Notes under the pieces: model-generated
What the model saw: only the letters and a program-made list of their open reading frames with translations
Database searches by the model: none
What the model was told of the DNA's origin: nothing
Translations under genes and position numbers: made by a program
Source of the DNA: Alphaproteobacteria bacterium
GTDB lineage: Bacteria; Pseudomonadota; Alphaproteobacteria; RF32; CAG-239
Length of the DNA: 64,000 nt
Direction: 5' to 3'
NCBI GenBank assembly: GCA_017635595.1
Contig: JAGBLF010000027.1
Location: forward strand, 24,530-88,529
In this document: piece after piece, positions 3,726 through 56,068 of the stretch
Layout of the letters: every line of letters starts with the position of its first letter
Numbering within the stretch: position 1 is the stretch's first letter

Positions 3726-3802
3726 GCGTGCGTAGCTCAGTTGGCTAGAGCAACTGACTCTTAATCAGTGGGTCCAGGGTTCGAATCCCTGCGCGCGTAC
3801 CA
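3726..3802 (+). tRNA. tRNA-Lys(CTT), with encoded CCA.
   Basis: Hand-folded cloverleaf: acceptor GCGTGCG/CGCGCGT (two G-U pairs), D-arm GCTC-AGTTGGCTA-GAGC, anticodon stem ACTGA/TCAGT with loop CTCTTAA (anticodon CTT), T-arm CAGGG-TTCGAAT-CCCTG, then A-CCA. Confidence 0.85.
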
Positions 3803-50059: not shown

Positions 50060-50947
50060 ATGACACACAGAATTTTTTACCCGCTCAAACTTGTTCTTAT
50101 AGAAAATAAAGGCAAGTTTACACTCTACAAGAGTGAAACACCGATTCCGCATACAGGTGAATTAGCGCAGTTACAAGCCGTCGATTTCATCAGGGAAAAT
50201 GCCGATTATATCGCCGTTTACCCCGAATGCGGTCTGATTATTGCCGACAGTTTGCTGTATTCGGTTCAAGGACAAAAAATCACAGATTATCCGCTTGACG
50301 GTATACAAATCTGCTCAAAACAAGGTATTTATATTTTAACATCCGCTTCTTCGACTTACCAAAGCAATCATCTTCTTTTGTGGGATGGTTCGAAAGTTTT
50401 GCTGAGCGTAAAATACCAAAAGTATATTGAGAGCGATTTTTATTTTGCCGTGTATGCCGATAAAAAGTGGTCTGTCTACGATTGGGAAGGTCACCTGAAA
50501 AACGGAAACTATCCGTTAGCTGAGGAAGATATCAGCATAGAAGGACATTTTTTAGTCAAGGTCAGTGCCGGTAATCATGAATTATATTCACTGAAATACG
50601 GACAACTCTTACGACAAAAACAAAATGTTGTCTTGTGCAGTAAAACCGCTGATTTTGCCGTGTGCGCCTCTTTAAACCATCGGCTTGAGGTATTCGATGA
50701 CGGCGTGTGGCATTATCTTGATGATTTTACTTTCTTTAATTTGCTTGACAATATAAATATGTTTTGTATTCAGCAAGGAGATAAGTACTATCTGTATCGC
50801 TACCCGCGATTAAGACCATTCTTAAGCAGAAAGTTTCCGCAAGGCTTGGATTTCGTTTCGTATGATGAGCAAACGCAGACATTGCTTGTCAAATCTTCAG
50901 GCAAATCCTTTGTTATCAGTAAAAGAAAAGCTCTCGGCAAATGCTGA
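50060..50947 (+). CDS. Hypothetical protein with possible WG-type beta-repeats.
   Basis: Recurrent Y/W-rich segments (DKKWSVYDWEGHL, YYLYRYPRL). No signal peptide. Weak assignment. Confidence 0.4.
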   Translation: MTHRIFYPLKLVLIENKGKFTLYKSETPIPHTGELAQLQAVDFIRENADYIAVYPECGLIIADSLLYSVQGQKITDYPLDGIQICSKQGIYILTSASSTYQSNHLLLWDGSKVLLSVKYQKYIESDFYFAVYADKKWSVYDWEGHLKNGNYPLAEEDISIEGHFLVKVSAGNHELYSLKYGQLLRQKQNVVLCSKTADFAVCASLNHRLEVFDDGVWHYLDDFTFFNLLDNINMFCIQQGDKYYLYRYPRLRPFLSRKFPQGLDFVSYDEQTQTLLVKSSGKSFVISKRKALGKC

Positions 50948-50965
50948 GAGCTTTTCTTTTGTTTT
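50927..50965. terminator. Bidirectional terminator hairpin shared by the converging 50060..50947 gene and the giant gene.
   Basis: AAAGCTCTC-(10-nt loop)-GAGAGCTTT followed by a T-rich run. Confidence 0.6.
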
Positions 50966-50970
50966 TATGC

Positions 50971-53900
50971 CTACCAAACCTCGTTATACTTAAGGTTAGG
51001 GTCATTCAAACGGTTGAGATATTGATCCGGTGCCGCTTTGTGATAACTATCCGGAATAGTTGATTTCAGCGGGTGATAAATATCAACATAAGCGCTGTAA
51101 CCATCAGCAAACGGCTCGGTTTGTAAGTTGGCTCGGTTAAAGTAACAATAGGTTGTCACCGTTGCCTCGAGAGTGTCTTTAACCACAGGGAAAACATTCC
51201 ATGAAAGAGTTCCCTTTGAATTAACATGTTTCGAACCGGTACCGCTCAGATATTCATCATAAATATATGTCGGATAAACAAAGCCTAACAATATGGCCCA
51301 TGCTTTTGTATATTGACCATCGCACGCTGTTGATCCGACGGTAGTATCCGCACCACACAACGGAACCGTCAAAGCTTTAAGCCATGTATTTTGTTGGAAA
51401 ATAAAAGGCTTTAATGTTTTAGAAACATCCTTGGCCGTTAATACATAATGAACTTGAGAACCATCTTTGGCGTAAGAACGTGCCGTCATATTGCTGATAT
51501 CTTCAACAACAAACTCATCAGAATATCCCGCGAATCTCATTCTGGCTCGGTAATCACTATAAGTGTCCTCTACGCTCAACTGGCGATATTGCGGCAAAAT
51601 GTTATCTTTCAGGTTAGCGTCAGAATATGTATCATTCATAGCTCTTGCCGCTTCCGAAGTTGCCATTAATTGTTCTTCAACAAGATAATGCGGACCGGAA
51701 TTCTTCGTATCCGTTTGTACAAGGTTGCCGGCTTGTGCCATGTTCATACTCAGCGGATTTACCGTAATTACACGCATATACCCCGGCGGACATTGCGGAG
51801 TCGGAACCGATCCGGTATATGGTGAAGCCCAATCGACATCACTGGATGTTAAAACTTGTTGACCGCCGACACGACCATTTGCAACGTCATTGTAATTAAA
51901 GGTAAAGTTAGTAATATTATCATCTTTATTATTATTGGCAATGTAAATGCCTTTGGTAATAAAGTCAGGCAACACATCGCTCAAACGAGCACCGCCGCGT
52001 GTTGTCAATTTAATATCATGCATGACGGACGTATATGCCGGATTAACCATATAGGTATCATATCTGTTCAGATGAGCAGAACCGTTATACGTATTATATG
52101 TTTCTTGCTTTACCAATGGCGGAACAGAAACATAGTCTCCATTTGCATCCAAATTATTAGCCACAAAACGGCTGGCCTGAACTGAACCGCTTGACGATTT
52201 TGCAACCATATTACCGTTACCCCCGACATCATCGGACGGTCTTGACGGCATAATACTTACGGACCCCTTGCGGATATACACCGTTCCCGGATCAATTTTT
52301 TGACTATTGACCGTAAACTGTGAGTAACCGTCATAGCTAGGACTTTCATCATATGTTGTATCTTTGTGCTGCAAATCAAACATCACGGCTTTTTCATCTC
52401 TTGTTGTAGAATCGGCATAGATATCAATACCGGCATCTGCATCATACTTACCGATAGCCATATATTTATAGTTGTTATTGATTGAATCGGAATACAGATC
52501 CGGTGTAAAAGCGACCTGACCGTGTACAGCCATATCATAATGGATATTGCGGCTGCCGTTTACCATATCATCATGGTAGTTTCGATAATAATTCGAACCG
52601 CCATATATCTCTTCCTGGTCTCTGTCATTACCGGCAATAGAGACCACTTTTGAACCATCTTCCCTGATAACATTGAAATTAGAACCGACTAAGTCCAAAC
52701 TACCGTTTCCGCCGATTAGAACGCGGAAATTGGAATAAGAATCCGAAATACTATCCAAATCAGCACCAAAATAAATTTCATTTGCCGTTATTTGTTCTTT
52801 TAAGTGCTCATTGCCTATTGTTATCTTCCCGTCTTGCTTTGCTGTCAAATCAATATCATGTGCCGTCGCTTTTACAGAGTTATCCGAATAACCGTCGGAT
52901 GGATTATTGACCGCAAAAGTTGCTGCCTCGCCATCAGATTCATCATCGGTGCCATCACCGCCGGAACGAATTCTGAAACCATTATGGTCGATATCCACCG
53001 CAACTTTAGCCGAACCGTCTTCACGGCGCTGATAATCATACATTTTGATACCGTCTTTATCTACATCGAGCCATTGATACTGATCATCAACCTTTTCAGA
53101 ACCGGTTTTTAAGGTCGCGGTTCTGATACGATTGGTATCAATCTGGTCAGCTGCCAATAAACCGCGAACGCGCGTATTTGAACCGATTATAACCGGAAAT
53201 ACTTGTTTACCGTTATCACTATACTGGATTGCCCCGATTGTCGACTTTATACCGCCTTCATTAATTTTATTATAGCCATCCTTCATCATAGTGATTTGTC
53301 CGTTCTTTTCAGATGAATCATAGCTTATATCATCACTGTATGCGTTGCTTCCTTCCGTTTCCATATGAAACATATTTTCACGTACCAAACTCAACTCCGT
53401 GCCGGATGAATGTATACCGTGTGTTGCACTGATAACAAAGTCTTTACCGTCCCAGCCTCTGCCACCGATATGAACCATACCGCAATAGGCATCTGATGCA
53501 AAACCTTCGGCTAAGCTGAGGTTACCGTATTGTGACATATCACCCTGATAGGAAGTGATTTGAAACAGATAATCTCCGCCGTGAGTCAAAGACTGAGAAC
53601 CGCTTTTTTTAGCAAATTGCAACTTGGCTGAATCAGCAAAGAATTGTTCTGCAGCCGCTTTTACCGAGCCGCCGATAATAGCATTTTTATTTGCGGCATC
53701 CGGCGAAACATACAAACCGACATTGCTAACACCGGAAGGTACATTTTCAGTTCCGATAATCATGCTGTCAACGCTGCGAATACTGTGCATGGTTGCACCC
53801 TCCGGCGTATCAAGCGGGTGTTCATCGCCGTCGTTATACCCCCCCATATACAAATCCGTACGCATTGTGTTGCGCCATTTTTCTTCATCGCCTTCATAAG

Positions 53901-54558
53901 TTCTTTGCAAATATTTGGAATTATCCAAATCACCGCCTTGTGTGCTACCGTTTACGGCATTTGAGGTCGATGCAACCAATGAATATACCGGAGAATTGTC
54001 ACTCGGAAATACTTTAGAATAATCAGCGCCGTTCAAAGTCCAGATACCGCCGACACCGCGCGCACTGTTCGGCCCTCTGACATAACCGCCGTTGGCACCG
54101 ACTAATGAGGCAATACGGGCTGTTCTCTCCTGGCCGATACTGTCATCCTCATTTTCAGCTCGAGCCGGAAACAGAGCAAATGCCGTTAAATTGGTGCCGT
54201 TTTTAACAATGCTTATTTTCGGTGTTCCATATTCATATAAAGCATGATCTACTTGGAAATTATATGGTAAGAACGCATCTAAGTCACCCCCGCTGACATT
54301 AACCTCCTTAACGTCACTGCCGTTGTCCTCCATGTCTTTAACAATAGTTGTATAGTTGGCGGCCATTAAAGAATTAACGGCATTCATATATGTACGAACC
54401 GTCGTTGCCGTGTTAATATCTTCAACTTCCAGAGTTCTTTCTGCAGATTTTTTATACATTGTCGGCGTAACGACAGCCATTAAACCAAGCATCGCCAGCG
54501 CTTCTACCATCATACCACCTTTCTCGAGTATGGATTTTTTGTTAATAAATTTTTTCAT
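50971..54558 (-). CDS. Giant (1195 aa) secreted/surface protein with a prepilin/TadE-like N-terminal hydrophobic helix (conserved Glu) and a D/G/S/N/Y-rich body. Function unknown.
   Basis: The N-terminus is MKKFINKKSILEKG|GMMVEALAMLGLMAVVTP: a short basic leader, Gly, Glu at +5 after a putative Gly-Gly cleavage, and a ~20-aa hydrophobic helix. This resembles the class III (prepilin) signal and the TadE_N motif (VEFAL...P). The remainder is acidic and glycine-rich with no recognised domain. Downstream terminator. Confidence 0.55.
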   Translation of the reverse strand: MKKFINKKSILEKGGMMVEALAMLGLMAVVTPTMYKKSAERTLEVEDINTATTVRTYMNAVNSLMAANYTTIVKDMEDNGSDVKEVNVSGGDLDAFLPYNFQVDHALYEYGTPKISIVKNGTNLTAFALFPARAENEDDSIGQERTARIASLVGANGGYVRGPNSARGVGGIWTLNGADYSKVFPSDNSPVYSLVASTSNAVNGSTQGGDLDNSKYLQRTYEGDEEKWRNTMRTDLYMGGYNDGDEHPLDTPEGATMHSIRSVDSMIIGTENVPSGVSNVGLYVSPDAANKNAIIGGSVKAAAEQFFADSAKLQFAKKSGSQSLTHGGDYLFQITSYQGDMSQYGNLSLAEGFASDAYCGMVHIGGRGWDGKDFVISATHGIHSSGTELSLVRENMFHMETEGSNAYSDDISYDSSEKNGQITMMKDGYNKINEGGIKSTIGAIQYSDNGKQVFPVIIGSNTRVRGLLAADQIDTNRIRTATLKTGSEKVDDQYQWLDVDKDGIKMYDYQRREDGSAKVAVDIDHNGFRIRSGGDGTDDESDGEAATFAVNNPSDGYSDNSVKATAHDIDLTAKQDGKITIGNEHLKEQITANEIYFGADLDSISDSYSNFRVLIGGNGSLDLVGSNFNVIREDGSKVVSIAGNDRDQEEIYGGSNYYRNYHDDMVNGSRNIHYDMAVHGQVAFTPDLYSDSINNNYKYMAIGKYDADAGIDIYADSTTRDEKAVMFDLQHKDTTYDESPSYDGYSQFTVNSQKIDPGTVYIRKGSVSIMPSRPSDDVGGNGNMVAKSSSGSVQASRFVANNLDANGDYVSVPPLVKQETYNTYNGSAHLNRYDTYMVNPAYTSVMHDIKLTTRGGARLSDVLPDFITKGIYIANNNKDDNITNFTFNYNDVANGRVGGQQVLTSSDVDWASPYTGSVPTPQCPPGYMRVITVNPLSMNMAQAGNLVQTDTKNSGPHYLVEEQLMATSEAARAMNDTYSDANLKDNILPQYRQLSVEDTYSDYRARMRFAGYSDEFVVEDISNMTARSYAKDGSQVHYVLTAKDVSKTLKPFIFQQNTWLKALTVPLCGADTTVGSTACDGQYTKAWAILLGFVYPTYIYDEYLSGTGSKHVNSKGTLSWNVFPVVKDTLEATVTTYCYFNRANLQTEPFADGYSAYVDIYHPLKSTIPDSYHKAAPDQYLNRLNDPNLKYNEVW

Positions 54559-54599
54559 CTGCGTTCTCCTTTATACTTTCCGACCATAATAATTAACTC

Positions 54600-55412
54600 C
54601 TAATGCGATGAATAAGGGTACGAATCCCCCATTAATGTTTTACAGTGATGTCCCTTATCAGAAGTCAAAAATCTCTCGTATGCAAACAAACAAGGTATTG
54701 TTGTACCGCATTTTTCTCCGAAGTGTGGCATATTCCAGATTAGGGAGTTAGAAGGTATTTTAGTATATTTCTGTACGATTTTATCATCAACTTTTTCGGT
54801 TGTGCCTACTCTGGTGCTGTAACCGCGTAATATACATTGTAAATTAAAACCCGCCTGCCCCGAGCAATCAGTCCAACCGTAAAGCGAGCCGGCGCCTGTC
54901 GCCTTTGCCATCAAATTGACCAGCGTCGGTAATGGTTTTACAATGCCCTCGTTTTGATCAATATCCTTAGAAAGCCATCTGTCAGGAATTTGAGCGTACG
55001 ATATGGCGTACCTGTAACTCGTGGAAGTGCAATTTTCAAACGAATTACCATCCTCTTCTTCAAGCTTTTTTTTGGTGCATACAACCACATGGTACACATC
55101 CAAAAGATTAGTGGTTTGTTCATAACCTATCGGCAAATTACTGGCATAATCGGTATACGGCAAATTATTCATATTTTCTATCGTAATGTCATGCGGTGAA
55201 GTCAATGCATAATTTTTCCAAGAACCGTTATCGGTGTGCATAATAAGTTCGCATTCCATTGAGTGAACAAATGCCAAATGTTCGGCACGAAAACGATTAA
55301 CGGTAATAGAAGCTTTTACCTCATTCACGGCATTATCCGTATCTGAACGAGGCGAAAGATTAAAAAAGCTCAGCGCAACCATTATTGTTGCCAGAAAAAT
55401 CCATATGTACAT
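54600..55412 (-). CDS. Membrane-anchored, Cys-rich 270-aa protein. It is the first gene of an operon with the giant pilin-like protein.
   Basis: N-terminal hydrophobic helix (MYIWIFLATIMVALSFF), 10 Cys in the extracytoplasmic part, a GGAG RBS, and 41 bp upstream of the giant ORF. Confidence 0.45.
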   Translation of the reverse strand: MYIWIFLATIMVALSFFNLSPRSDTDNAVNEVKASITVNRFRAEHLAFVHSMECELIMHTDNGSWKNYALTSPHDITIENMNNLPYTDYASNLPIGYEQTTNLLDVYHVVVCTKKKLEEEDGNSFENCTSTSYRYAISYAQIPDRWLSKDIDQNEGIVKPLPTLVNLMAKATGAGSLYGWTDCSGQAGFNLQCILRGYSTRVGTTEKVDDKIVQKYTKIPSNSLIWNMPHFGEKCGTTIPCLFAYERFLTSDKGHHCKTLMGDSYPYSSH

Positions 55413-55589
55413 AACATATCACTCCGATAAAGGAAACTCCTTTACTATGAAAGTAACATAAAATTATCGAAAACACCAGAATTATTGCAAATTCCAATGT
55501 ATTCTTCATATTTTTGTAATATTTAACATCGTGCCGGTAAAAAAAATATTAAAGGTCTTCCGTGTATATTTACCTGTTTACAAAAAAAT

Positions 55590-55642: not shown

Positions 55643-56068
55643 TTACTTTGTATATGCTTTTATCCACATATCGAGCATTTTTTTATCTTCATCACTCCAA
55701 CCCATAACATAGTTCCGTCCGAAACAAATCAGCGGTGTGCCCGCTGTATTACCTATTTTATAGGTTTTAACCGCTTCGGTAAACAATTTCATATTACCCG
55801 GCATTTTTATATTTAACGCCTTAATTTTGGCATCCGGGTGATTTTCATGCAAATATGCCGCCGCATCGTGGCAGTGTGGACAAGTTTCCTGATAAAAAAA
55901 GTAAACTTCGGAAGCACTTAAATCTATAATACTTTTTTCTCCGGATTCTGCCGCAGCCGTATTTGCGGTATCCGGCGTTGTCTCATTTTTCGGTTCTTCC
56001 GAATTGCAGGCTGCAACCAGCAAAAACCCGCATAAACACACCAATAAACTTAATAATCTATGCGTCAT
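55643..56068 (-). CDS. Thioredoxin-fold lipoprotein with a CPHC active site (DsbA-like thiol:disulfide oxidoreductase).
   Basis: Lipobox LLVAAC. The CPHC motif is identical to the DsbA active-site tetrad. 141 aa. Confidence 0.6.
   Translation of the reverse strand: MTHRLLSLLVCLCGFLLVAACNSEEPKNETTPDTANTAAAESGEKSIIDLSASEVYFFYQETCPHCHDAAAYLHENHPDAKIKALNIKMPGNMKLFTEAVKTYKIGNTAGTPLICFGRNYVMGWSDEDKKMLDMWIKAYTK

Follow-up and report, generated by a model that had tools for sequence, protein, structure and literature searches.

What is a 1195-aa protein with a prepilin-like N-terminus doing beside a single small membrane protein, in DNA that carries no pilus machinery? Genes for type IV pilus, Tad, or T2SS machinery are missing from the window (the whole stretch of DNA analyzed, 64,000 nucleotides long), as an earlier note on this DNA had stated, and from the flanks viewed, several kilobases before its start and ~10 kb beyond its end; no peptidase or pilin gene was found there either, and this absence counts against a pilus reading. 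The same note took the source to be an alphaproteobacterium, which agrees with the NCBI name of an identical partner protein (MAG J6N49). The reading that we favor, with a probability of roughly 55%, is that in gut and rumen Alphaproteobacteria the two proteins form the tip of a type IVb pilus encoded on the chromosome; this tip module would consist of an oversized modular minor pilin, here called the giant, and a leaderless partner.

The two open reading frames have the positions, sizes, and 41-bp gap reported in the earlier note, and candidates for the pair's own promoter region and bidirectional terminator, both proposed there, could be located:

54600..55412, minus strand: partner gene, for a pilin-fold protein of 270 aa that lacks a leader and has 8 conserved cysteines.
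54559..54599, minus strand: intergenic spacer of 41 bp, with an AGGAG ribosome-binding site 7 nt ahead of the giant's ATG.
50971..54558, minus strand: giant gene, encoding a 1195-aa modular type IVb minor-pilin-like protein.
55463..55491, minus strand: promoter-like site TTTGCA-17-GATAAT, from a consensus scan only, within the 230-bp gap that precedes the partner gene.
50919..50962, no strand: hairpin with a 20-bp stem between convergent genes, a candidate bidirectional terminator.

GGAG precedes the start codon of both genes, and the partner-giant spacer is mostly 1 to 47 bp in relatives; such short spacers fit co-transcription of the two genes. The promoter-like site follows the preceding gene's terminator (55616-55586) and may function as the promoter of the pair. 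As an inverted repeat (I3), the hairpin has 19-nt arms that are 95% complementary.

The partner lies directly upstream of the giant in all 74 assessable related loci, though the neighboring genes change, and every gene family near the giant other than the partner is limited to 13 loci or fewer. The two families comprise at least 729 (giant) and at least 193 (partner) cluster representatives, and the module is stably inherited over at least 75 species-level loci. This inheritance, together with housekeeping neighbors and native GC content in the window, argues against a prophage-derived receptor-binding or tail-fiber protein with its chaperone, an origin that is extremely unlikely: no PHROG matches were obtained, tblastn of the module gave no match in 50,697 phage or 72,556 plasmid records, and no phage structural genes were seen beside the module. 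Conjugation genes are likewise absent alongside the module, no shufflon or other repeat was found at it, and a T2SSE-type ATPase motif occurs within 10 kb in 0 of 82 loci. Known type IVb minor pilins sit inside the pilus operon and the module never does, an observation that counts against the tip-module reading.

How closely does the N-terminus of the giant, MKKFINKKSILEKG|GMMVEALAMLGLMAVVTPTMYKK, follow the pattern of a prepilin? Two segments are concerned:

54517..54558, minus strand: giant residues 1-14, a variable basic leader ending in Gly14, with a predicted prepilin-peptidase cut between G14 and G15.
54322..54516, minus strand: giant residues 15-79, a hydrophobic alpha-1N with Glu19, then an amphipathic alpha-1C; conservation in the giant is highest here.

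The basic leader, the glycine, the glutamate five residues on, and the hydrophobic helix that the earlier note had described are all present, and the two key residues do not vary within the family. The 14-residue leader contains 5 Lys and 1 Glu, Gly14 (-1) is invariant in alignments of 67 and of 32 family sequences, and Glu19 (+5) is invariant across the family, with a hydrophobic stretch of 21 residues (G15-Y35). The site motif G|[GS][LM]M[IVL]E was present in every one of the 74 members examined, divergent GS-type members included. The ~45 residues after Glu(+5) are nearly invariant, and residues 26-50 reach ~97% mean identity in proteins that are otherwise just ~35% identical, indicating that the motif is not a chance feature; as in pilins, the N-terminal helix, which spans residues 6-79 in the structure model, is the best-conserved portion of the protein. 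With hhalign, ordinary type IVb pilins of the PilS/bundlin type, from the same gut Alphaproteobacteria, can be aligned to this segment in register (25 columns, E 3e-4, probability 40%). The N-terminus is thus supported, at the level of sequence comparison, as a class III prepilin signal, and the leader would be cleaved after Gly14.

Curated signatures do not recognize this signal. The earlier note had called for profile searches of the N-terminus against pilin and TadE models, and PF07963 (N_methyl), TIGR02532, and TadE gave no match at E<=10 to the first 70 to 80 residues of three giant-family members. The small pilins of the clade also fall under the curated cutoffs (15.8 versus 16.3 bits for TIGR02532 and 13.9 versus 21.2 bits for N_methyl). 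Since PF07963 and TIGR02532 are blind to the giant's signal, signature-based surveys would probably miss this protein. The lack of a curated pilin-signal profile match, and globular parts without sequence similarity to pilins, count against the tip-module reading. The former also bears on an alternative in which the helix stays uncleaved as an anchor in the inner membrane, or acts as a dedicated non-filament sorting signal, and the pair forms a membrane-anchored periplasmic or surface complex that has nothing to do with pilus assembly. Such a signal-anchored envelope protein is consistent with the missing profile match, with pilus machinery that never adjoins the module, and with a structure model in which the N-terminal 36 residues have low confidence; it leaves unexplained the invariant glycine, the glutamate exactly five residues on within a hydrophobic segment, and the in-register match to the clade's pilins.

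Does the clade possess an enzyme and a machine for such a signal? It encodes a stand-alone A24 prepilin peptidase (Peptidase_A24 match, 6e-16) with 702 homologs, among which the NCBI-named matches are labeled Alphaproteobacteria MAGs. In three relatives (L017, L019, and L034) peptidase and module share a contig, and in L034 pilin, partner, giant, and peptidase are found together on one 27-kb contig. The clade's small pilins, 190 to 240 aa long, match PilS_N (4e-17) and Bundlin (3e-12), and such pilins adjoin a complete type IVb operon with TcpQ (3e-17), Secretin (4e-16), PAP_PilO (4e-11), T2SSE (3e-65), and T2SSF (6e-26), on contigs tied to the clade through pilin similarity only, a point against the tip-module reading. 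Homologs of the giant or the partner were absent from all 13 operon loci, as were class III ORFs of >400 aa. The operon lacks both a peptidase and a large minor pilin, meaning that these two roles are left vacant there. The peptidase and machinery that the earlier note asked to look for are present in relatives, and by extension the window's own genome may encode them as well.

The comparison with TadE and TadF made in the earlier note does not fare well against the same data. The G|xxxxE motif is common to TadE and TadF, Tad loci are common in Alphaproteobacteria, and the clade's A24 peptidase is short, with the PF01478 domain only and no methyltransferase domain, like TadV. A Tad (type IVc) pseudopilin nevertheless seems very unlikely, since the TadE profile had no match at E<=10, the clade has PilS/bundlin (type IVb) pilins and not Flp, its machinery consists of TcpQ, PAP_PilO, T2SSE, and T2SSF, no Tad or Flp family was found among the proteins scanned, and the best folds are type IVb.

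Beyond the helix, the giant divides into four further regions:

53944..54321, minus strand: giant residues 80-205, the beta-sheet head that belongs to the pilin-like domain at the N-terminus.
52159..53736, minus strand: giant residues 275-800, beta-rich with variable sequence and length, presumably adhesive modules that are exposed.
51934..52083, minus strand: giant residues 826-875, nearly invariant RYDTYMVNPAYTSVMHDIKLTTRGGARLSDxLPDF, in a low-confidence part of the model.
50974..51963, minus strand: giant residues 866-1195, C-terminal alpha/beta region with a conserved LNDPxLKYNEVW at its end.

As reported earlier, the protein is rich in D, G, S, N, and Y (8.8, 8.8, 8.7, 7.2, and 6.1%) and has no recognizable domain: searches of Pfam, NCBIfam, PHROG, and PDB sequences gave no match for the giant or the partner. 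The profile of the full giant found nothing at E<=1 among PDB sequences, the N-terminal profile gave weak matches at E<=10, none of them a pilin, and the globular parts resemble no pilin or PDB chain in sequence. Residues 275-800 show low conservation and the majority of indels and are presumed to be adhesive; the model places beta strands at residues 480-770 (pLDDT about 55 to 83), with values mostly <65 before residue 480. The motif at 826-875 could, speculatively, be an interaction or oligomerization segment. Family members reach about 1480 aa in relatives.

The giant has a pilin fold, a long N-terminal alpha-1 helix on an antiparallel beta-sheet, and the leading matches of its fold search are CofB and TcpB (type IVb minor pilins), R64-type PilM, CofA, TcpA, and H-type lectins. 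These folds, the invariance of the signal, its in-register pilin alignment, and the peptidase and type IVb operon of the clade uphold the class III signal proposed earlier, and because of the signal, the clade's machinery, and the CofB/TcpB folds, a giant pilin-like adhesin or pilus-tip protein, as the earlier note had suggested, is retained as the best reading.

Another question is the nature of the partner, whose N-terminus can be summarized as follows:

55242..55412, minus strand: partner residues 1-57, in the model a hydrophobic helix at 2-17, an NLSPR kink, and a helix at 23-57, resembling pilin alpha-1.

The high-confidence model of the partner retrieves the same pilus proteins as the giant at the top of its fold search. 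In essentially all of the 193 representatives of the family, the motif MY[ILV]W..LATF..NLSxRxD begins with Met1 itself, so the protein has no leader, and it is also without Glu5, position 5 being Ile where pilins carry Glu. Profile searches with the whole protein found no Pfam match at E<=1, those with its first 75 residues found none at E<=10, and PDB sequences gave no match. The earlier description as a Cys-rich membrane partner holds for the N-terminal hydrophobic helix and overlooked the pilin fold without leader or Glu5; its count of 10 cysteines must be corrected to 8, all conserved (C54, C112, C128, C183, C193, C235, C241, and C257). A leaderless protein of this kind resembles a plain bitopic membrane protein, which suits the signal-anchored complex; type IVb pilins as the best folds for both proteins are left unexplained by it, and we consider that alternative unlikely.

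How might a tip module of this kind work? The giant would enter the inner membrane via its class III signal, and the clade's stand-alone A24 peptidase would cut the 14-residue leader behind Gly14, making Glu19 the mature Glu5. Its first ~200 residues would then act as a pilin domain that primes the filament, which the TcpQ-secretin-PilO-ATPase-platform machinery would polymerize from small PilS/bundlin-type major pilins; a priming subunit would thereby reach, and be located at, the distal tip of the pilus. The adhesin proper would be the beta-rich, variable modules that make up ~1000 residues and, as in CofB, include a part resembling H-type lectins. Lacking leader and Glu5, the partner would not need the peptidase; most likely it binds and stabilizes the pilin moiety of the giant, and it may cap the very tip, like the Glu5-less GspK and Streptococcus sanguinis PilA, or alternatively serve as an inner-membrane assembly factor like R64 PilM. 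Tip location, adhesion, and partner-giant contact are what we infer from these comparisons.

The class III signal might instead just recruit the giant to the type IVb machine for display or secretion without incorporation at the tip, with the partner as a membrane dock, for which archaeal bindosome proteins and T2SS-like pseudopili offer a comparison (PMC4471445). This arrangement shares the signal and peptidase evidence with the tip module, TcpF and CofJ are examples of proteins secreted by type IVb systems (PMC6048534, PMC10120004), and a 1195-aa subunit within a filament may pass the secretin poorly. It appears improbable, because the nearest folds of the giant are the tip minor pilins CofB and TcpB rather than secreted substrates and because the operon has no other large minor pilin to serve as initiator.

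A bolder and rather doubtful variant of the tip module makes the partner a "born-mature" pilin, leaderless and peptidase-independent, whose Met1-Tyr-Ile-Trp would pair with Glu5 of the giant and seed the filament as its terminal cap. If so, the pair would be a portable tip cassette kept away from the pilus operon and would include the largest pilin-borne adhesin known, about 1200 to 1480 aa.

Uncultured gut and rumen Alphaproteobacteria are common, and their attachment to host mucus, feed particles, and other cells is little understood. The module is a concrete candidate for their main pilus adhesin, and two unannotated families would gain an annotation. It would also imply that modular minor pilins can evade all the sequence signatures tried here and that a tip module can be encoded apart from the pilus operon, while an obligate pilin-fold partner without leader or Glu5 raises the possibility of filament seeding by a subunit that bypasses the prepilin peptidase altogether.

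The earlier note had proposed an undescribed surface appendage. Large modular tip minor pilins are already known, namely CofB, TcpB, PilV, and PilB and PilC of S. sanguinis (PMC8179133, PMC6048534), and the pair most likely belongs to a known kind of surface fiber, the type IVb pilus, rather than to a new appendage. CofB has a pilin domain, beta domains, and an H-type lectin and is a trimeric initiator at the tip (PMC6048534), and TcpB initiates pilus assembly (PMC5207764). In the giant, as in CofB, beta-rich C-terminal domains come after a type IVb pilin domain, but the giant shows no detectable sequence similarity to CofB or TcpB, which measure about 420 to 520 aa and have their genes inside the pilus operon, whereas the giant is never operon-linked. 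It is always accompanied by a leaderless pilin-fold partner, unlike CofB and TcpB, whose known partners are the secreted CofJ and TcpF.

The partner shares with R64-type PilM its fold and a gene position next to a minor-pilin gene, pilM2 adjoining pilV2 in PAPI-1 and Burkholderia pseudomallei Tfp7 (PMC3984277, PMC5297154). Solved PilM chains have 120 to 123 residues against 270 in the partner with its 8 conserved cysteines, the R64-type PilM family profile does not match it (no Pfam at E<=1), and, compared with R64-type PilV and PilM, which also occur on IncI plasmids, the gene order at the module is partner, then pilin. R64-type pili serve conjugation, whereas the module comes without conjugation genes or shufflon. 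In S. sanguinis, the Glu5-less PilA stabilizes the modular pilin PilC at the tip (PMC9934059); PilA, like GspK of the T2SS set GspK-GspI-GspJ, retains a leader, though a degenerate one, and undergoes peptidase cleavage, whereas the partner has no leader whatever. Finally, the largest modular pilin in a 2021 InterPro survey has 860 aa (PMC8179133), compared with 1195 aa for the giant, and modular minor pilins may reach about 1200 to 1480 aa, well past that extreme.

The 270-aa partner gene and the 1195-aa giant gene lie on the reverse strand, 41 bp apart, exactly where the earlier note had placed them. The pair (the module) and its flanking signals are arranged as follows:

54600-55412, reverse strand: partner, 270 aa
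50971-54558, reverse strand: giant, 1195 aa
55616-55586: strong terminator of the preceding gene
55491-55463: promoter-like site
ahead of both genes: ribosome-binding sites of the GGAG type
50919-50962: hairpin with a 20-bp stem, between the giant and a convergent gene

The surrounding DNA is ordinary chromosome, with an fts/mur division cluster, ATP synthase, ClpB, FtsH, RuvC, accD, and one autotransporter in the window and accB, accC, and LPS heptose genes in the ~10 kb beyond its end, and the GC content of the module equals that of the rest of the window. The autotransporter (PF03797; 28578-31748, reverse strand; called as 1037 aa, ORF of 1056 aa) is a second candidate surface adhesin of the window. 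Directly upstream of the partner, 55643-56068 on the reverse strand encodes a lipoprotein of 141 aa that has a CxxC motif of thioredoxin-like type and matches, weakly and below threshold (8.8e-7), TrbB, the thiol-disulfide isomerase of F-pilus assembly; it was rejected as a module member because it accompanies the module in no more than 7 syntenic loci. Rfam and tRNA scans of the window found only a tRNA-Lys at 3726. The terminator hairpin was the sole repeat detected at the DNA level, with none of shufflon-like or other type, and the giant protein has no internal repeats.

The observation holds up, and the pair is conserved. For the giant, the search gave at least 729 full-length homologs with 34 to 67% identity; those listed span 1140 to 1390 aa, apart from a few shorter and probably partial ones, and none carries a Pfam domain. 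An NCBI MAG named Alphaproteobacteria bacterium (locus tag J6N49) encodes a protein with 100% identity to the partner, and a profile search of 1.84 billion proteins found only 193 cluster representatives of the partner family. A scan of GTDB species genomes yielded 75 module loci; nearly all have titles of uncultured (alpha)proteobacterial MAGs of gut or rumen origin, and six go under other taxon names. These six contigs (L019, L034, L044, L045, L046, and L076), titled Bacteroidaceae, [Ruminococcus] gnavus, Eubacteriales, Eubacterium sp., or Lachnospiraceae, carry the alphaproteobacterial module and its syntenic genes; mislabelling or contamination of the bins is the probable cause. The gene directly ahead of the giant is the partner in 74/74 assessable loci, usually with a spacing of 1 to 47 bp, and clustering of all ORFs of 82 loci showed that any other gene family recurs in 13 loci at most. 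This constant pairing amid changing housekeeping neighbours indicates that partner and giant move as a unit. A mobile-element or phage origin was rejected, since the giant had no tblastn match in plasmids or phages.

Pfam and NCBIfam gave no match to the whole proteins, nor at E<=10 to their N-terminal 70 to 80 residues, and PHROGs gave none to either. PDB sequences were searched with three profiles (giant, giant N-terminal domain, partner) and yielded nothing meaningful, the top match being to a coiled region of BibA (E 0.009). A literature search on RF32 gut Alphaproteobacteria turned up nothing relevant.

The most conserved part of the giant is its N-terminal helix, as in pilins. All 74 members examined have the motif G|[GS][LM]M[IVL]EA[LM]AML... 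after a leader that varies in both sequence and length. The motif's first Gly is invariant and so is the Glu five positions later, even in divergent members with G|SMMIE, and residues 26 to 50 have a mean identity of ~97% in proteins whose overall identity is ~35%. Even at E<=10, this N terminus escapes the curated pilin-signal and TadE profiles, and the TadE-like reading proposed earlier is not supported; the enrichment of the giant in D, G, S, N, and Y, claimed in the same place, holds. Signal and helix align by hhalign in register with the small pilins of the gut and rumen relatives described below, across 25 columns (E 3e-4), with Gly matched to Gly and Glu5 to Glu5. Nothing aligns beyond these columns, and outside this segment the module shares no sequence homology with known pilins.

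The small pilins are ORFs of 190 to 240 aa that start with ...G|RSM[IV]EMLGVLAIIGVLS and lie in the flanks of several giant-bearing loci; they match PilS_N (4e-17) and Bundlin (3e-12) and are therefore type IVb pilins. In L017, L019, and L034, a Peptidase_A24 protein of 237 aa (6e-16) is encoded at ~2 kb distance from the module, and the 27-kb contig of L034 holds pilin, partner, giant, and peptidase together. This peptidase has 702 homologs, of which those named by NCBI are labelled as Alphaproteobacteria MAGs. It always stands alone among housekeeping genes, adjoining groES and groEL in L017, L034, and L083 but not in L084, and it is short (233 to 240 aa), with PF01478 as the only domain seen, at the following positions:

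L017:15730-16443
L083:10001-10717
L084:10001-10702

Paralogs of the pilins, too, are dispersed as single genes between housekeeping genes. Locus L048 encodes, immediately ahead of a type IVb pilin and at a distance of ~3 kb from the module, a protein of 1840 aa (L048:1371-6893) whose pectate-lyase-like adhesive domain matches PF20585 (4e-5). In the window itself, tblastn found no pilin-like or A24 peptidase genes; type IV filament genes are absent from the window, in agreement with the earlier note, and from the flanks viewed.

Scanning metagenomes with the small pilins as seeds confirmed at least 577 matches; of the 78 distinct loci retrieved from among them, 13 contain a full type IVb operon with the following genes:

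TcpQ (3e-17)
lipoprotein secretin (4e-16)
R64-type PilO (4e-11)
unknown protein of ~500 aa
T2SSE ATPase (3e-65)
T2SSF platform protein (6e-26)
bundlin-like protein without a class III signal, 191 aa with a transmembrane helix (L105:7658-8233)
one to three pilins
short second T2SSE-type ATPase after the pilins, 320 aa (L105:11365-12327)

The bundlin-like protein lacks a class III signal and is therefore a second leaderless pilin-like protein. Neither a large minor pilin nor a peptidase is present in the operon in these 13 loci. Many pilin loci share housekeeping genes with giant-bearing MAG loci at 60 to 94% identity, and the FtsH of one is 78% identical to that of the window. The operon contigs are tied to the clade by pilin similarity alone (57 to 66% identity and the common N-terminal signature G|RSM[IV]EMLGVLAII...).

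The partner is without a leader. Its ATG is preceded at 9 nt by an in-frame TGA, the match to MY[ILV]W..LATF..NLSxRxD starts at Met1 in essentially all 193 family representatives, and the fifth residue is Ile in place of Glu. Such conservation would not be expected of a Sec signal that is cleaved off, which would normally also have a positively charged start. The partner has 8 cysteines, all conserved (8/8), rather than the 10 first counted. Comparisons by hhalign with the giant N-terminal domain and with the small pilins found no relationship (probability <1%). LPxG[YF] is invariant in both proteins at about residue 95, right behind the long helix (giant residues 97 to 101, 54256-54270; partner residues 93 to 97, 55122-55136); hhalign pairs the two motifs without significance (probability 0.7%).

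The structural model of the giant is of moderate confidence only (mean pLDDT 60, pTM 0.33), with a very long helix on a sheet at residues 40 to 200 (pLDDT ~62 to 84), and Foldseek found no significant match to it. Residues 826 to 875 (51934-52083) include RYDTYMVNPAYTSVMHDIKLTTRGGARLSDxLPDF, which is almost invariant in the family and yet has a pLDDT below 50; this segment may be an interaction or oligomerisation motif.

The best explanation is that the giant is a modular type IVb minor pilin of unusual size and that the partner, obligate and leaderless, has a pilin fold. By analogy with CofB and TcpB, the giant would fill the minor-pilin role absent from the clade's operon, and it would be processed by the stand-alone A24 peptidase known from loci of relatives; we infer that the giant is cleaved, sits at the pilus tip, mediates adhesion, and contacts the partner. 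SLL-2 and HPA are H-type lectins. CofB consists of a type IVb pilin domain and two beta-rich trimerising domains, the last with an H-type lectin fold resembling discoidin I (PMC6048534), and both CofB and TcpB initiate assembly at the pilus tip (PMC6048534, PMC5207764). The partner resembles Glu5-less subunits such as GspK and the PilA of Streptococcus sanguinis, which occurs with the modular lectin-pilin PilC; such subunits enter the tip complex first and stabilise or cap it (PMC9934059). We favour a stabiliser or cap role. The partner also resembles R64-type PilM, which is needed for PAPI-1 transfer and whose gene adjoins the minor-pilin gene pilV2 in PAPI-1 and Tfp7 (PMC3984277, PMC5297154). 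The alternative that the partner is an inner-membrane assembly factor ranks below the stabiliser or cap role. Modular pilins at tips have already been described (PMC8179133), which leaves the suggestion of a new appendage unsupported; what sets this pair apart from such systems is the size of the giant, its invisibility to sequence profiles, its separation from the operon, and its leaderless partner.
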